IMG/VR virus record: IMGVR_UViG_3300032327_001521
DNA: 25,964 bases
Reading direction: 5' to 3' (one strand)
DNA from: a virus
Lineage: Duplodnaviria > Heunggongvirae > Uroviricota > Caudoviricetes
Shown: positions 86 to 25,156 of the stretch, piece by piece
Position numbering within the stretch: position 1 is the stretch's first letter
How the letters are laid out: every line of letters starts with the position of its first letter
Made by a program: the position numbers and the translations under genes
The notes under the pieces: model-generated
Seen by the model: the letters and a program-made list of their open reading frames with translations, nothing else
What the model was told of the DNA's origin: nothing
Databases searched by the model: none

Positions 86-1816
86 TTAGTATGTGTAGCT
101 AGCAGATGGTCTGTAAGAACCAGTAAGAACGCCTAGACCGTTTACAGTCATGGTGATGTACTGAGTTTCTGGATGCCAACCGGCTTCTGTGATAGCATAA
201 CGAGACTTCATACCAATCTTTGGAGAGAATGTTCCCTCTGCGATTGTTTGAAGAGACTCAGCCATGATATACGGCAAGAACTTAACACCAGGCTCCTCAT
301 CAGCTCCCTTACGACCGATGTGGATACGGTTATCAGAGAATTTCAGATTAGGATCAACGAATACAGTCAAACCGTGTACTTTACCAGCAGGGTAAAGACC
401 TCCAGCAGTAGAAGGCATATCATTGTTGAATGGTGCAAAAGAGTAACCAGCAACGTCAGCAAGAGCAGAAGCTACGCGACCGTTAGTTACAATGTATGTA
501 CCAGCTCCAAAACGACCTCTATGATAGATCAAGTTAGCCATTTCAAGAATCTTGGTTACAATTCTACGCTGTAGAGTTGAGGTGTTCTCAAAACCAGTTG
601 AACCAACTGTTAGATCAACGGTAGTAAGTGATCCAGCTGCGCCGTATGCTCCACCGTTTCCTTCAACTGATTCGATAGTTGTAGCGTGAGCCTTACCAAG
701 GGCAAGAACACGGTCAACTAGTTTCTTGTTGATAGACTGAGCAAGTTCGTTAACTGCTACGTTCTCAAGCATTGAGATAACGTCAAAGTTCCAAACTCGG
801 TTCAAATCCTGGATTTGCTCAACTGTAGCAGAGATTGACACTTGGTCGCCTTTTGCCTCAATGAACTTAGTAAACATACGAAGACCCATTTGACGGAACT
901 TAGAGTTCTCAGCTGTAGCACGAGTCATTCCTTCTACTTCATAACCGGAGTTAGAGTTTAGGAAAGGTCCCTGTAAAGTTCCATCTGCTGAATCCCAATC
1001 AGTATCACTAATTGAAGTAAATCCAGAAATATGATTCTCAAGAGCAGATACTAATTGCACAGCAGCTGCTGTGAAAGTTGTATTAGCTGCACCAAGTCCA
1101 TCAAGCGGAGCAGCATACGTACCTGCATCAGATCCAATTGCAGTTGTTGCAATCGCCTCAAGAGCAGCACCTACTGTATAAGTTGCGCTGTCTGAACCAG
1201 TTACAACTTTAAGTACAGGAAGTCCGCTTACGCGAGATTTACCAACATATTGGAATTTAAAGTCAGAGTAAGTTCCTCCAGACTGTGCAATATACTTACC
1301 TACCGCAATAGCTGGATCAATGGTTGGGATCGTAACTAGGAAGGGCTCATATTGAGTACCTGTGTTACCACCTTGATAAACGTAATCTAGGTAAGGAAGA
1401 AATCCAACTGGAGAATCCATAGGAACAACACCAACTAGGTCGAAACCAATAGTTTTAGCTGCAACTTGAATAGCTACAGGAAGAAGGCTTGGGAATTTAT
1501 CACCAGAGCCTGATACATTAGCACCATATCCACCTTTAGTAAGAGTTCCAGTCCCAAGACCAGAGAATGGAGTTTGCTGGTACGTTGGAGCTACAATAGA
1601 GCCCATAGCGCTAATTGAACCTGGCTGCTGAAGGAAAAGTCCTGGAGCGGCAGCGGCTTCGTTGATTGAGCCAGAATTATCGAAAATAGCGTGGTTGTGA
1701 GCGTAATCAACCAACCAAGGGCGAGATGATACGTTAACACCATAGCTTTCCAACACCGGTGACCATGTTTCAGTTACTGAAGCATCGTTCAGCCTTTTGA
1801 AAATTTTAGTTGCCAT
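86..1816 (-). CDS. gp23: Major capsid protein, T4 gp23-like
   Basis: gp23-family motifs: IGFDLVGVVPMDSPVG, ATVEQIQDLN, NELAQSINK, RRIVTKILEMANLIYHRGRFG, VFVDP, FLPYIM, FSPKIGMKSRYA; N-terminal propeptide ending SINE; lies next to prohead protease. Confidence 0.93.
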   Translation of the reverse strand: MATKIFKRLNDASVTETWSPVLESYGVNVSSRPWLVDYAHNHAIFDNSGSINEAAAAPGLFLQQPGSISAMGSIVAPTYQQTPFSGLGTGTLTKGGYGANVSGSGDKFPSLLPVAIQVAAKTIGFDLVGVVPMDSPVGFLPYLDYVYQGGNTGTQYEPFLVTIPTIDPAIAVGKYIAQSGGTYSDFKFQYVGKSRVSGLPVLKVVTGSDSATYTVGAALEAIATTAIGSDAGTYAAPLDGLGAANTTFTAAAVQLVSALENHISGFTSISDTDWDSADGTLQGPFLNSNSGYEVEGMTRATAENSKFRQMGLRMFTKFIEAKGDQVSISATVEQIQDLNRVWNFDVISMLENVAVNELAQSINKKLVDRVLALGKAHATTIESVEGNGGAYGAAGSLTTVDLTVGSTGFENTSTLQRRIVTKILEMANLIYHRGRFGAGTYIVTNGRVASALADVAGYSFAPFNNDMPSTAGGLYPAGKVHGLTVFVDPNLKFSDNRIHIGRKGADEEPGVKFLPYIMAESLQTIAEGTFSPKIGMKSRYAITEAGWHPETQYITMTVNGLGVLTGSYRPSASYTY

Positions 1817-1837: not shown

Positions 1838-3109
1838 TTATGCTCTTCTTTTAAGAGCGTCCAGATAATTACTTGAGTAACCTCTTAGACTTTCGTTCAC
1901 TTGTTCTAACGAAATATAACCCTCTTTACCTTGGCCTTCGTTAATAACTTTTTTATTTATATCGGCTTGTTGTGCAATTCTTTCATTAATTCCTCTTAAA
2001 TCGCGCGAATCCCAAAATGTTTTTGCTTGATATGGAGTATTAATAACGACAGTTGATGCTTGTGAAGCAATCCAATTACGCTCACGATCAGTCATGCTTT
2101 CAAAAAGGTTCTTGTATTTCTCTGGCATAAACTTAACGTATGCTGGAGTATTTTCAACCTCTTTATTCATAACTGCCTCCATGATATTGATAACCTCTCC
2201 TTCTGTGAAGAATATGGCCCCTTTCATGGTCTCAACAATTGCAGACTTAGTAGACTGCTCAAGAGAATAGAATTTTTGCTTGTTTGATTCACTAAGCAGT
2301 TTTAAGAACGGGTACTTATTTTCAAGAACCGCATTTGCTGAATTTGATTTAATGTGAGATAGGATTCCGTCTACTGCACTTGCTAGCTCATCAACTCCAG
2401 ATGTTTCAGAAACTTCAAAGCGTGCGCTTTCGTTAAGCTTCTTAACGTCAGAAAGAAGTTTTCGAGTTTTAAGATTTGTATTTGGAGTAAGCTTTTCATT
2501 CATAGCCTCTGCGATATACTCGGAATAGGCAATTCCCTTTTGAAGATTTTCGCCAAGATACTCAGAATACTTGATAGCTGCATCAAGATTTTCAGCAAGA
2601 TAGTTTGAGAATTTAATACCCTTTTCAGCACTTTCAGCAACATACTCGGAATACTGGATTCCTTTGTCAACGTTTTCTGCAAGGTAGTTAGCATAGGCAA
2701 TATTCTTTTCTACTGCTTCGGCAATGTATTCGCCATAGTTGATAGATTGATTTACCTTTTCGCCTAGATAGTCGGAATATTGAATATTCTTTTGGATTTT
2801 TTCGCCAAGATAATCAGAGTAGTCAATTACGTTGTTAACCTTTTCGGCAACGTGCTCAGTATAGCCAATTCCCTTATTCAACATTGTTGAAAGGTAGTTA
2901 GAATACCCGACCATTTTCTCTAATTCTCCAGCTAGGTAGTTTACGTACTCTACTAGTTTATTGTTTACGTCTGCGCTCCCAGAATTTTCATTTAAGGATT
3001 TTAGACCGGCATTGTTTTTCGAGAGGCTTTCCTGAAGAGAATCGAATTTCTTCTTCACCAACTGCGAATACTGATTCATTTCCTCTCTAGATACAAAGTC
3101 ATTAGCCAT
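1838..3109 (-). CDS. Putative nested in-frame scaffolding protein starting at internal Met236 (MANDFVSREE...)
   Basis: In-frame ATG at 3107-3109 preceded by A-rich ACAAAATAATAACAAAAAC and by ATAAATAA at 3144-3151, at the protease/scaffold boundary. Confidence 0.55.
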   Translation of the reverse strand: MANDFVSREEMNQYSQLVKKKFDSLQESLSKNNAGLKSLNENSGSADVNNKLVEYVNYLAGELEKMVGYSNYLSTMLNKGIGYTEHVAEKVNNVIDYSDYLGEKIQKNIQYSDYLGEKVNQSINYGEYIAEAVEKNIAYANYLAENVDKGIQYSEYVAESAEKGIKFSNYLAENLDAAIKYSEYLGENLQKGIAYSEYIAEAMNEKLTPNTNLKTRKLLSDVKKLNESARFEVSETSGVDELASAVDGILSHIKSNSANAVLENKYPFLKLLSESNKQKFYSLEQSTKSAIVETMKGAIFFTEGEVINIMEAVMNKEVENTPAYVKFMPEKYKNLFESMTDRERNWIASQASTVVINTPYQAKTFWDSRDLRGINERIAQQADINKKVINEGQGKEGYISLEQVNESLRGYSSNYLDALKRRA

Positions 3110-3814
3110 GTTTTTGTTATTATTTTGTGTTGGAATGTCAGAATTATTTATTCTGTATATTTTCACAGAATCCTCAAAGTTAAAACTCTCGGAAATCTCT
3201 GTAAGAGTATTTGTAATAGCTGTGCTCTTTAATCCGTCAAGCGATTCGAATAGCATTGAGTAATTGGAGCCTAGGCTCTCAGAAACCTGGCTAAGAGCAG
3301 CTTGTGAGAAACCTGGTTCAGCTACTAGATCATATGTGAAGATTTTCTGTAACTTTACTTTGCCGCCTTCCATTACTTGACCTGCAGCTCTAGACGAGGT
3401 TGAGATTGTACAACCTGACTCAACTAGAGTCTTTGCAATTCTTCCGCATGGCGTGTCTAGTACCTTAAGTTTAATTCTAACGGTATTTGATGACTCATCA
3501 TACTTTAATGACTCAACAACGTGAGACACATTCTTTAGAGAAACATCAAAGCTTTGTGGATGATCCATCTCGCCAAAAAGTTGACCCTTATTGATTTTTT
3601 CATTAAGGTAACTTAGATGAGGTAAGTATTCCTGCTTCTCGTAGATTCTGTTGTTTTCATTACGTTGTCCGAAAACAGCGCAAATACCTTCAAGGATAAG
3701 CGTCCCGTCATTCGCCTTTGAAACGTTCAACGCTTCATTAACCCTCTCAATGATGAACACATTGTTATCAGGGAGGCTCGTACTGTGCAATAATTTTGGT
3801 TTAGCGCTAGTCAA
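1838..3814 (-). CDS. gp21: Prohead core protease (T4 gp21-like) fused to a gp22-like scaffolding region with 14-aa repeats
   Basis: N-terminal ~170 aa have LEGICA, NENNRIY, GEMDHP (catalytic His), VSH, DTPCG, STSSRAAG (catalytic Ser), TYDLVAEPGF; the rest is coiled-coil-like with YSEYLAE-type repeats; TTG start. Confidence 0.9.
   Translation of the reverse strand: MTSAKPKLLHSTSLPDNNVFIIERVNEALNVSKANDGTLILEGICAVFGQRNENNRIYEKQEYLPHLSYLNEKINKGQLFGEMDHPQSFDVSLKNVSHVVESLKYDESSNTVRIKLKVLDTPCGRIAKTLVESGCTISTSSRAAGQVMEGGKVKLQKIFTYDLVAEPGFSQAALSQVSESLGSNYSMLFESLDGLKSTAITNTLTEISESFNFEDSVKIYRINNSDIPTQNNNKNMANDFVSREEMNQYSQLVKKKFDSLQESLSKNNAGLKSLNENSGSADVNNKLVEYVNYLAGELEKMVGYSNYLSTMLNKGIGYTEHVAEKVNNVIDYSDYLGEKIQKNIQYSDYLGEKVNQSINYGEYIAEAVEKNIAYANYLAENVDKGIQYSEYVAESAEKGIKFSNYLAENLDAAIKYSEYLGENLQKGIAYSEYIAEAMNEKLTPNTNLKTRKLLSDVKKLNESARFEVSETSGVDELASAVDGILSHIKSNSANAVLENKYPFLKLLSESNKQKFYSLEQSTKSAIVETMKGAIFFTEGEVINIMEAVMNKEVENTPAYVKFMPEKYKNLFESMTDRERNWIASQASTVVINTPYQAKTFWDSRDLRGINERIAQQADINKKVINEGQGKEGYISLEQVNESLRGYSSNYLDALKRRA
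1953..1961 (-). promoter_or_regulatory. Putative late promoter TATAAATAA for major capsid gene, embedded in the scaffold 3' end
   Basis: Exact T4 late consensus TATAAATA about 137 nt upstream of the capsid ATG. Confidence 0.55.
2495..2947 (-). repeat. About 11 tandem 14-aa (42-nt) repeats, consensus YS(E/D/N)Y(L/I/V)(A/G)ExxxKxIx
   Basis: YVNYLAGELEKMVG / YSNYLSTMLNKGIG / YTEHVAEKVNNVID / YSDYLGEKIQKNIQ / YSDYLGEKVNQSIN / YGEYIAEAVEKNIA / YANYLAENVDKGIQ / YSEYVAESAEKGIK / FSNYLAENLDAAIK / YSEYLGENLQKGIA / YSEYIAEAMNE. Confidence 0.95.
3144..3151 (-). promoter_or_regulatory. Putative internal late promoter ATAAATAA for nested scaffold
   Basis: Motif about 35 nt upstream of internal ATG 3109; encodes INN in the linker. 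Confidence 0.5.
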
Positions 3815-3831
3815 TTTGATACGACTTTTTT

Positions 3832-3841
3832 GTTATTTATA
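3832..3841 (-). promoter_or_regulatory. Late promoter TATAAATAAC upstream of prohead protease
   Basis: Exact T4 late consensus in the intergenic gap, 18 nt before the TTG start; a second ATAAATAAC at 3876-3884 overlaps the dnaJ stop. Confidence 0.7.
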
Positions 3842-3880: not shown

Positions 3881-4750
3881 TTATCCCATTGCCGTAAGGA
3901 TTTTGCTTAGCGCATTTGACTCTTCTTCTGAAAGCTTGGTTATGTCAGGTTTAGCCACCTTAAGTTCAAAAAGGTAGGCTCCACGATTTCCATTTTGTGA
4001 CATTAGGCCTTGACCTTGAACTTTAACCCGAATATCCGATAAATTACCTGCTACAATTGATGTTATCTTATACTTTTTACCTAGCGGATTCTCCAATATA
4101 ATCTCATCAGAGAAAAGAATTTGTTGCAGACTCACATCAACTCGCTGTACTAAATCTAGGCCACTCATTGTTATGCCCATCATATCAACCAGAACACGTA
4201 TTATGAGATCACCAGTTGAGCTTGTTTGGGTTGGTCTGCCGAAGAAATCATTTCTTTCAAACACCATGCTTGATCCTCCGCCTCTAACTCTTAACACAAT
4301 AGCATCGTGATTTCTAACCTTTGTAAATGGATACTCACTCTTGCTCAAGTCAATTTTAACCTTTACTGACTTGTTTTCAAAACCTGAGGTTGACAGCCCT
4401 GATTTTGAAATTCTATAATCAATTGTGAACTCTAGGCCAGCCATTAGCTCAGCCAGGCTAAACCGGCGTTCCACTTGAATATTAAGGTGAGACGTGTCCC
4501 GCATATCAAATGAGAAATCATGAAATGCTGTAAATGGGTCAAATTGAGGATTTGACCTTGGGTTATCGTATTGCGCTCTCTTGTCTGGGTCACCGAGTAC
4601 TTCATATGCTTCAGCTATCTCTTTAAACCTGGCCTCTCCATCCGGGTTTACGTCAGGGTGAAACTTTTTACTTAGATTACGGTAAGCTTTTTTTATCTCT
4701 TCTTGGCTAGCCGACTTGTCCATGCCAAGTATTTCATAATAATTTTTCAA
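3881..4750 (-). CDS. dnaJ: DnaJ/CbpA-like J-domain co-chaperone lacking the Zn-finger
   Basis: NYYEILG...[20 protein letters not shown]...[22 protein letters not shown]-domain with HPD; C-terminal GDLIIRV and VQGQGL...RGAYLFEL; no CxxCxGxG repeats; TTG start. Confidence 0.92.
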
Positions 4751-17194: not shown

Positions 17195-17653
17195 TTAACT
17201 AAAGGGATCGAGTGATGGATTTGGAATAGCTTTCCATATCTTCTCGGAATTTGTACCCTGACCTCTAGCTATCTGTACCTCTTCAGCATAGTCTTTTATT
17301 GCAATAAGAGACTCTACGTACTCACCATCAGCTAGCAATTCTTCAACCATATTGGCCAAATCATCTGACATCTTAACTCTATACACAACTGGATGGCGCT
17401 GCGAATTAAATTTACAGCGCATCATCATCATACCCAGGTTACCACCATATGCCTTCTTTTCAGGCTCAGCCTCTCCGCCCTGATCGCTCAAGCCAAGTGA
17501 CTTAAGCTTGTCCATATTATCCGCCCTTGATAGATCAGGCTCTTTTATGAAAGACTCTACACCATGGCAGTCTGCAATACCGTAATACCAAGAGGACTCT
17601 CCTCTGCTACGGCTTTCATTAAAAGTTTCAAATGATGATATGTGATTCTTCAT
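17195..17653 (-). CDS. Hypothetical protein, probable internal head protein
   Basis: N-terminus MKNHISSFETFNE resembles the T4 capsid-targeting sequence MKTYQEFIAE. Confidence 0.7.
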   Translation of the reverse strand: MKNHISSFETFNESRSRGESSWYYGIADCHGVESFIKEPDLSRADNMDKLKSLGLSDQGGEAEPEKKAYGGNLGMMMMRCKFNSQRHPVVYRVKMSDDLANMVEELLADGEYVESLIAIKDYAEEVQIARGQGTNSEKIWKAIPNPSLDPFS

Positions 17654-18424: not shown

Positions 18425-18973
18425 TTACCAAAATCCAGGATATGTTTTTCCGCCCCATAGATGAGCGTATCTATTGATTCTGCATGCCCAATAGCCGGCT
18501 TTTGTCTTGTCCTTTTTAAGATGACATTGATGGCGAGCCGCAAATGAGGCTCTAGCCTTGGAGTTGCTCACCTTTGCCGTAAGACCTCCATGTACATCGC
18601 CAAATGAAATCTTTTTGATATTTCCCGTTTTGGGATCCTTTATGTATACATGATACTTTTTAAGACCGCCACGCTGAGGATATCCAAGTTTGACCTCTTT
18701 ATTGTGATACTTTGCTTCAGTTAACTCTTCAATTGGAAAGTCTAACGGTACAACTGTACCCTCATAAAGACCGCTCTTACCTAATTCTGTTTCAATAAAC
18801 AGGATCTGGTCTATCCCGGTAAAACCCATTTCGCCTTGGTCAAATTTATATCGGGCCTCGGCTAGTAATTGAATGTGAGCTAGGCTGCCTGGCCTAAAAA
18901 TAGACTCAGCAACGGATAGCCCACGATCAATGTGGTATTGCAGGTTTTCAGATATTAACGTAAGACTTTTCAT
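18425..18973 (-). CDS. Hypothetical phage protein with basic C-terminal domain (KKISFGD...SFAARHQC...AGYWAC)
   Basis: Intact ORF in operon; ISE/LTE candidate cleavage sites separate an acidic N-part from a basic C-part. Confidence 0.75.
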   Translation of the reverse strand: MKSLTLISENLQYHIDRGLSVAESIFRPGSLAHIQLLAEARYKFDQGEMGFTGIDQILFIETELGKSGLYEGTVVPLDFPIEELTEAKYHNKEVKLGYPQRGGLKKYHVYIKDPKTGNIKKISFGDVHGGLTAKVSNSKARASFAARHQCHLKKDKTKAGYWACRINRYAHLWGGKTYPGFW

Positions 18974-18982
18974 ACTAATCTT

Positions 18983-19408
18983 TTATTGAATGTTTCCTCC
19001 GCATTCGCACATCATGTCTTCATTGCACTCAGCCTCTTCGTACATGGTACCGCACTCATTACATGTATAACCTTCTGACATTGTCATTTGGTGATCCTGC
19101 TCATTGTGATCCATAGAGCCTTCACCTAATTCATTGATTAGAAAGTTTGCAACCTCTTCAATGTCATCTTTAGACGTAGCAATATGGTCAACTGCCCAAT
19201 TGTGGCCATCTTTAAGAATTGAGTCCACTTCATTGGGATCCATTTCAAGAATAATGCCCGTTAATCTATGGATTGTTTCAATATTACCAAAGAACATATA
19301 GTTCTCAGCTCTATGATCATCGTGATCTACTTCCAAATGCGGCTCATCATGGCCAGCTACAAAATCATCAAAATTAAAACCTTCAAATGTTTTTACAAGT
19401 TGTTTCAT
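18983..19408 (-). CDS. Hypothetical acidic protein with CTS-like N-terminus and C-terminal Cys cluster
   Basis: MKQLVKTFEGF start; NYMFF, GHNWAVDH; CNECG...C...CECGG. Confidence 0.75.
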   Translation of the reverse strand: MKQLVKTFEGFNFDDFVAGHDEPHLEVDHDDHRAENYMFFGNIETIHRLTGIILEMDPNEVDSILKDGHNWAVDHIATSKDDIEEVANFLINELGEGSMDHNEQDHQMTMSEGYTCNECGTMYEEAECNEDMMCECGGNIQ

Positions 19409-19417
19409 TCTATTTTA

Positions 19418-20941
19418 TTATTTTAGGAACCTGTTGACAAAATCATTAAACTCAAGCACGCGCTTGTCCTTTTTGTCATTTTTCTTTTTGCGAGGTGGAT
19501 TAAAGTTATCGCCTGACCCAATTGAAGTTGGGGTTGGGGCAACAATTGCTCCCATTCCACCAATTGATCCAGGGGCTTGTGCTGATAGACCTGGTGCAAC
19601 TGCGTCCTCAAATGTTGCACCTTTCTTTTTATCAATTACCTCAGTATTTGGAATAAACATTCTGGATATTGCATCGGCCTTCATCTCACCTTCTCGACCT
19701 TTTAAGAGTCGACCGGTTGCTTTAGCTGCGGTATTTAAAGTTTTTGCATAGATATCATGAACCCGCTTGCCTAAATCAGCCCAAGCCTGTCCAGCTGGAG
19801 TAATTGGTGCGCCTGCGCCGCTTAGAAATAGGTCAAGTAACGACTGCATGCCTTTTCGGAGTTTCATTACAGTAGACTCATCCGCTATCTGCTTGCCAGT
19901 TACTGGTAGCTCAACTTTCTCATATAGCTTAAGCTTGACATTAAAGTCAAAGTGAATGCCTTTGGCTCGGTCAACCTGAATTGACTTGTCCTGTATGCGC
20001 TTTAATATGACTGCCTCAGCCTGATCAACTAGAGTATTCATGTACTTAATTGTTTCAGGTCTAGACTCAACTCTAACCTTGGAAGAACCATGTAGAGCAT
20101 TGATCTTGGACCGAATGTCTGCAATCTCAGTTTCAAACTCCTTTTGTGTAGTAAATGTTGTGTAGTTGAGTTTCACAATTCGATTTAGCAGAACAGCCTC
20201 TTCTCTATCAAATCCACCGGCTTTACTTATTTCAGCAAAGGCCTCATCTCCAATATTTGACTTTATCTTATCTTCATGATAGGATTCATCCCTGCTAATC
20301 TGTTCCTGTGTTTCATCAGGTAAGTTAGTAGCAATCTGTTCAATTAGATCAAATCGACGAAGAATCTCTGCGGCCTGAGCCTTTTTTTCAACTGGATCAG
20401 CCGTTTGGCTCTCAACTACGGCTAACGATTTCTTATTTTGCTGTGCAGCCGCAGCCAGTGGTGTCTCGTACGATTTTATAAACAGGTCTTTGATACTCTC
20501 AATTTGAGATGATATTGACTCCGCTAACCGCTTAAGCTCCTCATTTTCTCTAGCCTTTGCTGCTTGAAATATTTGGTCAAGTAGATCAATTCTTTTGGCA
20601 AATCTGCCCTGATCTACAACTAATTGTTGCACCTTTACGGTTGATGGGTCGGCCTGTAAAAGCTCGTCAGTTAGAGCTTGGGTTATTTGAGCAAGTCTTT
20701 CTTGACAATATTTAAGGTATGTTGCAACGGTTTCAGCACGCTCAATTAAAAATTGGTCTTCATATATATCGGTAGGAATTGCTCTATCCACAAATCCATC
20801 AAGTAACTCGTTATACATTTCATTTTCAGTAGGCTTAGTATTAGTATCTTCATCAGAGTTTTGATCGCCAGTTGCAATTAGGTTGGCCTCAGCAATGAGG
20901 TCCTCCAAATACTTAAACCGCTTTACCTTTATGAACGACAT
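19418..20941 (-). CDS. Helical putative internal head protein with capsid-arm-like C-terminal segment; true start likely ATG 20941 (MSFIKVKRF...)
   Basis: ATG directly follows the upstream stop at 20943; LIAE candidate cleavage site; C-terminal APGLSAQAPGSIGGMGAIVAPT...GSGDNF matches the capsid N-arm. Confidence 0.78.
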   Translation of the reverse strand: MSFIKVKRFKYLEDLIAEANLIATGDQNSDEDTNTKPTENEMYNELLDGFVDRAIPTDIYEDQFLIERAETVATYLKYCQERLAQITQALTDELLQADPSTVKVQQLVVDQGRFAKRIDLLDQIFQAAKARENEELKRLAESISSQIESIKDLFIKSYETPLAAAAQQNKKSLAVVESQTADPVEKKAQAAEILRRFDLIEQIATNLPDETQEQISRDESYHEDKIKSNIGDEAFAEISKAGGFDREEAVLLNRIVKLNYTTFTTQKEFETEIADIRSKINALHGSSKVRVESRPETIKYMNTLVDQAEAVILKRIQDKSIQVDRAKGIHFDFNVKLKLYEKVELPVTGKQIADESTVMKLRKGMQSLLDLFLSGAGAPITPAGQAWADLGKRVHDIYAKTLNTAAKATGRLLKGREGEMKADAISRMFIPNTEVIDKKKGATFEDAVAPGLSAQAPGSIGGMGAIVAPTPTSIGSGDNFNPPRKKKNDKKDKRVLEFNDFVNRFLK

Positions 20942-24466: not shown

Positions 24467-25156
24467 TTAATCTAATGGTCCGTATTCTCCGCTCGCTATT
24501 CGGTCACCTAATCGAATAGATTCTGCCGAGCTTGCAGATATCTGCAATGTTGTAATCAACTGACAGTATTCCGGGTTTTCAGTCAAAAATTTTAAAACTT
24601 CACGTGTATCATAGTCTTGATATGATCGCTTTGGAATTGCAACATACTTTTGTATGGTTGTTCGCTGGGCACTAATATCCCATAGCTTAAGTACATATTC
24701 ATCAGTTGAGTCAAGTCGATTTAACTCATCAATCATTTCCTTTATTCCATTAGCCTTTGCTTCACTTGCTTCAAGTTTTAGGTCCGCAATCTCCTCCTCA
24801 GTAAACTCTTCTAGGCCAATTTGCCTTACTAGAGCGTCACGTTCATCATACTTATTATCATATGTTAACCTGTTTAGCTTAGCCTTAATCTCAGGTGTAA
24901 GTGCTCCAATTGATATTAGTCGCCTCCATAATAAGTTAAAGAATAGAGCTTCCTCTTCTTCTATTGGAACAGATCTAGAACCAAGCAAACCGCTTGGGTA
25001 AGTTATGTACTTTAAGTTTGGACACAGCTCAATAATCTTTTCTACATCCCTAATTAATATAAAGTTTTTTGATATGAGCCCAAGTCGGTTAAGTTCATAA
25101 GCTCCATCGTTTTCATTAACGAATTTTAAAAAATCCTTGATATGGTTCATTGCCAA
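24467..25156 (-). CDS. Hypothetical protein, probable internal head protein
   Basis: N-terminus MNHIKDFLKFVNE is CTS-like; preceded by ATAAATAAC. Confidence 0.72.
   Translation of the reverse strand: MAMNHIKDFLKFVNENDGAYELNRLGLISKNFILIRDVEKIIELCPNLKYITYPSGLLGSRSVPIEEEEALFFNLLWRRLISIGALTPEIKAKLNRLTYDNKYDERDALVRQIGLEEFTEEEIADLKLEASEAKANGIKEMIDELNRLDSTDEYVLKLWDISAQRTTIQKYVAIPKRSYQDYDTREVLKFLTENPEYCQLITTLQISASSAESIRLGDRIASGEYGPLD

Follow-up and report, generated by a model that had tools for sequence, protein, structure and literature searches.

A counterpart of the capsid N-terminal arm at the end of a putative head-internal protein in an uncultured T4-type jumbo phage

Why should a protein that is encoded far from the capsid gene of a phage end in a stretch that reads like the beginning of the mature capsid protein? 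The question is raised by the IMG/VR record IMGVR_UViG_3300032327_001521, a stretch of 25,964 nucleotides (hereafter the window), which comprises a head and baseplate region and comes from an uncultured T4-type jumbo phage of about 260 kb. The T4-type equipment is present, since both a gp23-type capsid protein and a gp21-type (S77) prohead protease are encoded. The protein in question, here called the carrier, has 507 amino acids (aa), and its gene lies 17.6 kb from the capsid gene (17–22 kb in the relatives that keep the gene order). In an initial annotation made from the letters of the window, its C-terminus was read as a copy of the mature capsid N-terminal arm, placed directly after a Glu and followed by a basic stretch and a motif of the capsid targeting sequence (CTS) type. 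The positions and sequence strings given there, the spacer of 4 aa in the copy versus 24 aa in the capsid protein and the Glu preceding both segments were all found to be exact (Table 1).

Similarity of the carrier tail to the capsid arm

The comparison of the carrier with the capsid protein by BLASTP, with composition adjustment on, resulted in 20 identical residues out of 39 (E 1e-9). The Smith-Waterman score was 90, compared to 38.5 ± 5.3 in shuffles of the whole proteins, and none of the 2000 shuffles reached this value. The high content of Gly, Ala and Pro in the two segments would be in line with an explanation that needs no function, namely a compositional coincidence or the neutral leftover of a duplication or a gene conversion. 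When both proteins were shuffled in blocks of 40 aa, by which the local Gly/Ala/Pro bias is kept, the maximum score was 73 and again 0/2000 shuffles reached 90. For the two segments alone, the observed score was attained in 0/20000 shuffles. The similarity therefore holds after correction for local composition, which was the test that the initial annotation had called for.

With a profile made exclusively from the tails of 56 orthologues, capsid proteins obtained 30–39 bits; calculated for a database of 1.84 billion proteins, the E-value still went down to 5e-5. Over the whole genomes of three relatives (93–100% complete, 250–270 kb), the same profile identified the tail of the orthologue and the capsid gene only, and the reverse search with the capsid protein as query returned the capsid protein itself and the carrier tail only. 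A gp24-like capsid paralogue was not detected in these three genomes at E ≤ 0.01, and a third copy of the segment was not found in the window.

At the nucleotide level, the aligned stretch is 55% identical, and the third codon base is the same in 7 of the 20 identical residues. The low DNA identity and the few shared third bases argue against a recent duplication or gene conversion and point to selection at the protein level as the force that maintains the likeness. With the shuffling results, the recognition of capsid proteins by the tail profile, the conservation of the two segments over 57 and more than 100 homologues, respectively, and the six independent lineage-matched pairs described below, an explanation without function is practically refuted and hardly credible.

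On the side of the capsid protein, the segment is kept in more than 100 homologues. The residues E53, P58–F61, Q63–S67, G72, P77 and G103–P109 are invariant among 52 diverse capsid proteins. P109 aligns with residue 28 of mature T4 gp23*, which means that the copied stretch corresponds to the whole variable arm, from the predicted maturation site I-N-E/A (here and below, a slash marks the cleavage site) to the start of the conserved helix.

On the side of the carrier, 57 orthologues were found in a search of 5.8 billion proteins, mostly of about 490–560 aa and mostly starting at the MSFIKV/MFxKVKR position. Their C-terminal 80 residues are the best-conserved part, with a mean column identity of 41% compared to 22% for the whole protein. 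The consensus of the tail is E-[ED]-x-x-A-P-G-V-S-x-Q-V-P-G-S-I-G-x-M-G-P-I-x-P-P-T-x-T-S-x-G-S-G-D-N-F-N-P, followed by a Lys run and I-L-E-F-x-x-F, so that the order is Glu, arm copy, Lys-rich tract and (V/I)LEFxxF helix. The P, G, Q, PGSI, MG, PT and GSGD.F of the copy are invariant or conserved to at least 90% among the orthologues, and the Glu in front of the copy (E463 in the numbering of the 525-aa form introduced below) is conserved to at least 90% as well, with a [LIV]xE site in 38 of the 57 sequences. The segment is thus a true conserved counterpart of the post-cleavage N-terminal segment of the capsid protein, and it is conserved over the 57 members of the carrier family; the preceding Glu and the succession of basic tract and CTS-type helix are supported as well. 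In one drifted clade (loci L113, L114 and L112 of the genomes G012, G009 and G011, respectively), the tail reads ..PGxxFDTPQSxAGGMDxFxxLGPG-Lys run-IISFxxF, and the GMGxIxxPT part is lost along with GSGD. The likeness to the capsid arm (APGLFFQQPGSV) persists in the first half of this tail. An open reading frame (ORF) of 88 aa bears the module in G011.

Table 1. Features of the window that are relevant to the carrier and to head formation.
Feature	Position	Strand	Remarks
Major capsid protein gene, gp23 family	86..1816	minus	576 aa; PF07068, E 2e-40
Original capsid segment, E53-F108	1493..1660	minus	predicted maturation site INE/A and arm up to the GSGDKF-PSLLP helix start
Prohead protease S77/S80	1838..3814	minus	PF03420/PF20034 and phrog_207; long scaffold-like C-terminal extension
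Repeats in the extension of the protease gene	2495-2947	minus	about eleven tandem 14-aa units of the YSxYLAE type, Y-S-x-Y-L/I-A/G-E-x-x-x-K-x-I
DnaJ-type co-chaperone, complete gene	3881-4750	minus	J domain (E 9e-26) and DnaJ_C; directly upstream of the protease and capsid genes
Carrier gene, 507 aa (P0001)	19418..20941	minus	ATG at 20941, same start in the 507-aa orthologues
C-terminal amphipathic helix VLEFNDFVNRFLK, CTS-type (VLEFNDF)	19421..19459	minus	VLE is a possible second cut site
Lys-rich tract NPPRKKKNDKKDKR	19460..19501	minus	poly-Lys after the copy also in orthologues
Capsid-arm copy E445-F480, E/DAVAPGLSAQAPGSIGGMGAIVAPTPTSIGSGDNF	19502..19609	minus	in the 507-aa carrier; best-conserved part of the family
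N-terminal leader MSFIKVKRFKYLEDLIAE, 18 residues	20888..20941	minus	CTS-like; ends in a T4-type L/I-x-E site

No match was obtained with the carrier in searches of Pfam, PHROG and GenBank phages, nor by tblastn of the carrier, its tail or the N-terminal form of the module against 50,697 GenBank phages. Related loci in viral contigs were not found with the carrier as query and were retrieved with the capsid protein instead. Besides the 507-aa form, a 525-aa reading from an upstream ATG (P0003) was considered, and residue numbers are given for either form as indicated. In the AlphaFold2 (AF2) model calculated from the orthologue alignment (mean predicted local distance difference test score, pLDDT, of 68), long helices extend over residues 57–447 and a short last helix over residues 516–524; the tail between residues 457 and 516 is disordered, with a pLDDT below 50. 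Foldseek identified no PDB match for this model at E ≤ 0.001, and in BFVD only uncharacterised proteins of uncultured phages were matched. The assignment of the carrier as a gp24-type capsid paralogue was rejected: the similarity covers 39 residues only, PF07068 is absent and the model is all-helical. The elongated all-helical shape is that of scaffolding proteins. The gene of a sole scaffold would be expected beside the capsid gene; here it is distant, and a scaffold-like repeat extension is already fused to the protease.

Several sites of the T4 protease type are predicted along the carrier. The leader ends in ...DLIAE at residue 18 of the 507-aa form (residue 36 of the 525-aa form), and this column reads [LIV]xE in 56 of the 57 orthologues. 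For comparison, the CTS of T4 is MKTYQEFIAE (PMC9026906). The carrier would be cleaved at this leader Glu. In the numbering of the 525-aa form, a further [LIV]xE site is located in the linker at residue 359 (46/57 orthologues) and another in the last helix at residue 515, the VLE site (30/57). The (V/I/L)xxFxxF pattern of the last helix is also common to the N-termini of ORFs 17195–17653, 18983–19408 and 24467–25156 of the window. In the fused orthologue P0034, the helix runs as ...LLEFSEFINE/ENEEE into homologues of the window ORFs 17195–17653 and 18425–18973. Because it is fused on to homologues of neighbouring genes, the helix appears to behave as a CTS-type tag between the units of a protease-cut chain. 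Some orthologues, P0034, P0026 and P0055, are 770–814 aa long; in P0055, an insertion of about 130 residues separates the helical body from the module, which is itself followed by additional residues. These long forms suggest that polyprotein and split versions of one head-internal gene set exist. The features of the carrier fit a head-internal protein that is processed by the prohead protease.

Distribution of the module and matching to the capsid of the same genome

The search of 1.84 billion representative proteins with the tail profile resulted in 99 matches at E ≤ 0.001, which form four groups. These are orthologue-like proteins of 490–640 aa that carry the module C-terminally, free-standing proteins of 56–150 aa, proteins of 300–750 aa with the module at the N-terminus (e.g., MKELEENI-TPxxIGGMGxISLPTxTxxGSGDVP-Lys run-xxFxSFExY) and one capsid fragment. 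All contexts seen were those of phages. Poly-Lys follows the copy in most of the 99 matches, and the unit of arm-like core, poly-Lys and FxxF helix is, judged by its sequence contexts, modular. The IMG/VR records with N-terminally tagged proteins are 26–66% complete and without a capsid gene, hence unpaired with a capsid of their own. In one module-bearing protein, P0260, a DUF3008 domain (E 1e-9) lies ahead of the module. Sphingomonas phage PAU gave no match to the module.

The capsid protein of the window is 36–37% identical to those of the closest GenBank phages, LR756500 (462 kb) and the Lak megaphages, whereas the IMG/VR relatives (records of 250–271 kb, 93–100% complete) reach 60–78%. 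Using a broader module profile on whole records, four further lineages were found, in each of which one non-capsid ORF per genome resembles the capsid arm of its own genome far more than it resembles other modules. The genomes were searched whole, or as far as the record reaches. In Lak-C1, a small ORF (NTIGVGDPVPFG...GSGDRF) pairs with the own capsid arm NTLGVGDPVPAG...GSGDKY (z-score 9.5). In the cultured Tenacibaculum phage PTm1, LLE-SYGQQ..VGMGAVELPKVS..(11 aa)..RGSGD of ORF-299 pairs with INE-SYGSQ..PGMGAVKLPSVS..(11 aa)..RGSGD of the capsid protein (z-score 13.9), and the gene of ORF-299 is located between the portal and protease genes. LR745206 (635 kb) has an ORF of 94 aa, ..YKKFIE-NADGSSTSGMGAVSSAQPGGLAGTT..GSGDLG followed by KKEKRKK, which matches its own arm with a z-score of 14.9. 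In LR756500, the match is to an ORF of 140 aa, ..NVNGIGSVKLPGDPDLSTNFSKQILGSGD followed by KKKK and FIKTFNEF (z-score 16.6).

In T4 itself, with the gp23 arm as query, gene 61.1 was the only match other than gp23 in the genome (E 7e-6). Its product gp61.1 (NP_049649, 54 aa, annotated as 'hypothetical protein') begins with MKTFKEFIKE/DMVAGDSGGNPENISIGTTSGAVVNKGPEQIPKKKK... and is identical to gp23 residues 57–93 in 17 of 37 positions (E 1e-9). In PTm1 and T4, the likeness of carrier and capsid protein extends to the residues immediately ahead of the Glu.

Two of these ORFs were inspected further by eye. The ORF of Lak-C1 (L127, MK250029, 1471–1713) encodes 62 aa by translation table 11, or 80 aa if TAG is read as Gln, and lies directly downstream of a 377-aa protein (183–1316) that appears to be a transposon protein of the TnpB/OrfB type. 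The carrier of LR756500 (L144, 1501–1920) starts with MPSTSVKQRAFF and is perhaps of the DUF3008 type, as found in P0260.

The carriers of the six lineages (window, Lak-C1, PTm1, LR745206, LR756500 and T4) were compared to the six capsid N-termini in a 6 × 6 matrix. The scores against the own capsid range between 73 and 109, whereas those against other capsids range between 19 and 53 and those between carriers between 20 and 53. The sum of the diagonal is attained by the identity permutation only (1/720). Where this was measured, the capsid proteins of these lineages share at most about 37% identity with that of the window; their alignment to T4 gp23 is a distant one. At identical residues, the third base is the same in 35–59% of cases (five pairs, T4 left out), which makes a recent gene conversion unlikely. 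Two scenarios are left, namely co-evolution of the two segments, or occasional renewal of the copy from the capsid gene followed by its retention; in both cases, selection would see the likeness to the own capsid arm. Such tracking of the own capsid arm, from T4 to the megaphages, is expected of a mimic that shares a binding site with it. The covariation with each genome's capsid arm, which had been put forward as a check in the initial annotation, is therefore present between the deep lineages.

Lineage matching would also arise if both segments co-evolved with the groove of one enzyme. The copy may then be a decoy directed at the protease, a competing pseudo-substrate that serves as timer or activator of maturation and not as a ligand of shell or scaffold. 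This would agree with the fact that the Glu is kept in both proteins and that the similarity begins at or before the scissile Glu, the upstream residues being included in PTm1 and T4. The copy, however, extends over 30–45 residues up to GSGD.F, far beyond what a protease groove reads, and T4 gp21 requires L/I-x-E only (PMC9026906). Furthermore, the repeats of the protease itself provide about eleven (L/I/V)(A/G)E sites without arm-like sequence, which indicates that the motif is not needed for cutting. A decoy is thus an unlikely explanation.

The occurrence of the module at the N-terminus of unrelated proteins of 300–750 aa and at the C-terminus of others, with protease-type sites at its borders and a CTS-type helix attached to it, would suit a pure address label, that is, a capsid-targeting and cleavage signal by which the helical carrier as the real effector is loaded into the head. 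In T4, Lak-C1 and LR745206, however, the module makes up nearly the whole protein (54–94 aa), and there is no cargo to be loaded. In addition, a general tag would not be limited to one copy per searched genome, the neighbouring genes are already addressed by the short FxxF tag, and a label would not need to track the capsid arm. We consider this explanation very unlikely.

A possible role of the tail inside the prohead

The reading that we prefer, with moderate confidence, is that the carrier tail is a protease-processed peptide of the prohead core which uses the site of the capsid N-terminal segment. The carrier would be brought into the acidic scaffold core by its CTS-type sequences (the ...LIAE leader and the VLEFxxF helix) and by the Lys-rich tract, and would there be cut by the prohead protease after the conserved Glu residues. 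The protease encoded at 1838–3814 presumably cuts both the capsid protein and the carrier. A basic peptide of about 52 residues would be freed, the N-terminal 35 of which copy the capsid segment from the maturation site to the PSLLP helix start. As this peptide shares its sequence and its newly formed N-terminus with the capsid segment, it could take the binding site that the segment holds while still inside the prohead. The scaffold core, the inner shell surface and the capsid arm itself are candidates for this site. Sharing the site, the peptide would compete with the capsid arm, stand in for it or pair with it in the contact between core and shell and in maturation.

The T4 head provides a structural background for this proposal. 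In the unexpanded head, residues 66–105 of gp23 are inside, disordered and probably touching the scaffold core, and the head-length mutations A66D, A94V and G97S lie in the copied gp23 segment (PMC9546572). After expansion, the segment moves outside and forms the arm and the N-fist on the outer surface (PMC9546572). The internal position before expansion, the vicinity of the core and the head-length mutations support an internal site at the prohead stage. The position of the PTm1 carrier gene, in the slot of genes 67/68, fits a core role in head shape.

The initial annotation had placed the copy in the mature capsid instead. According to this model, the cleaved copy docks in the lattice where a neighbouring arm is missing, at vertices or the portal, and thereby anchors the carrier or its basic peptide. 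The lineage matching to the capsid arm would be explained, the Lys tract could contact DNA, and internal proteins at penton-hexon junctions do exist, as in the case of P1 DarA/Hdf (PMC12810830). Since the T4 arm and N-fist are located on the outer surface after expansion, beyond the reach of a core-delivered peptide (PMC9546572), a copy inside the head could not just substitute for an absent arm of the mature shell. Moreover, the premise of a missing arm at the vertices found no support, as no separate vertex paralogue of the gp24 kind was found in the three near-complete relatives. Docking in the mature lattice therefore seems improbable.

A number of observations weigh against the prohead peptide that we prefer. 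The clade has no cultured member and is known from sequence alone, and the tail profile gave no meaningful match to PDB sequences. The site before the copy in the window is TFE and not [LIV]xE, and many orthologues lack the VLE site and show LG or LD in its place. In the drifted clade, whose capsid protein is 60–62% identical, the tail reads GGMDxFxxLGPG without GSGD, whereas the capsid arm keeps GSGDKF, so that the match is not obligatory over its full length. Within the clade of the window, 13 genome pairs showed no clear covariation of tail and capsid arm at fine scale, both being simply conserved. Hints at most were seen; for instance, both partners have an aromatic residue five positions after PG in two sub-clades, with one counter-example. 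Finally, the carriers differ completely between the lineages, and repeated independent capture of a capsid fragment is a possible origin.

The capsid-arm copy looks like a general and unstudied part of T4-type head assembly. That every T4-type phage, from T4 to those of more than 500 kb, has one core-delivered peptide which co-evolves with the capsid arm and works in maturation is a wider claim that we regard as doubtful. In one version of it, the peptide would occupy the internal site that is vacated by the arm at expansion, thereby locking the expanded state or setting the head size, while its poly-Lys tail would switch from the acidic scaffold to the packaged DNA. T4 head assembly has been much studied. 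The copied capsid segment is the one that bears the head-length mutations of T4 and moves from the inside to the outside at expansion, and a core-delivered protein bounded by protease sites and matched to this segment in six lineages points to an unrecognised player in the communication between shell and core, the setting of head length and the timing of expansion. The question is tractable in T4 (gene 61.1) and in the cultured phage PTm1. In practical terms, the module can serve as a marker by which head-internal proteins of huge uncultured phages are recognised, and it might also be used to load cargo into capsids.

Head genes of the window and comparison with known systems

The gene of the S77/S80 protease adjoins the capsid gene. 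Most of the 14-aa repeats in its extension bear an (L/I/V)(A/G)E site of the protease type, which resembles the end of the T4 CTS (EFIAE), and the extension looks like a scaffold built for cutting into 14-mers. The DnaJ-type protein may be encoded by the phage to assist in the folding of head proteins. The exact sequence TATAAATA, which resembles the T4 late promoter, occurs at two sites in the window (3834–3841 and 1954–1961, minus strand), which is not above chance; the one at 3834–3841 precedes the start of the protease gene by 20 bases.

A close counterpart in layout is T4 gp61.1, which has a CTS, a Glu cut site, a copy of about the first 28 mature residues of its own capsid protein and KKKK. 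The carrier of the window likewise has a segment like that of its own capsid, a protease-type Glu before it and a Lys-rich tract after it. In contrast to the free-standing 54 aa of gp61.1 with the CTS in front, the copy in the window belongs to the tail of a helical protein of 507 aa and is succeeded by the CTS-type helix. The score between the two carriers is 45, which is background, and homology is not detectable; the carrier may nevertheless work like gp61.1. Only incidental mentions of gp61.1 were found in the literature, and no published description of a capsid-arm copy was found there. The remark in the initial annotation that no case has been described is consequently correct as far as the literature is concerned, whereas a counterpart does exist in the uncharacterised T4 gene 61.1.

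In T4, the CTS of IPI–III and Alt is a short amphipathic tag ending in L/I-x-E which delivers proteins into the core and is removed by gp21 (PMC9026906). At the level of sequence, the leader and the last helix of the carrier are of this kind. The T4 CTS comprises 10 residues and is unlike the gp23 arm except for the F..F(L/I).E context before the cut site, whereas the module of the window comprises 50–60 residues with the capsid-arm copy and the poly-Lys tract.

The small core proteins gp67 and gp68 of T4 are also cut by gp21 and are thought to influence head size (PMC9026906). The PTm1 carrier gene occupies their slot between the portal and protease genes, and in gp68 an INE site precedes a strongly basic tail. 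They differ in that gp68 has no arm-like segment (z-score −1.5) and the likeness of gp67 is weak and to the propeptide only. This likeness, between gp67 residues 2–48 and residues 19–67 of the gp23 propeptide, has a score of 47 (z-score 3.2, reached in 16/2000 shuffles). Both stretches end at the cut site (LIE/G and LTE/A; L158, NC_000866, 2282–2524 versus 4446–4650), and gp67 is perhaps another, older example of a core protein with a likeness to the capsid N-terminus.

Like the carrier, P22 gp8, the 80alpha scaffold and SaPI1 CpmB are helical proteins with a C-terminal element for capsid contact. The 80alpha scaffold and CpmB reportedly have in common a C-terminal motif that is directed at a single capsid site. 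In that case two scaffolds bear the motif, whereas here the second bearer is the capsid protein itself. Two proteins compete as scaffolds in 80alpha/SaPI1 (PMC5644958). P1 DarA/Hdf are protease-trimmed internal head proteins on the inner capsid surface that touch DNA (PMC12810830), but they bind via folded domains, and no capsid-arm copy has been reported for them. The closest known systems are thus T4 gp61.1, the T4 CTS with the internal proteins, and the core proteins gp67 and gp68.

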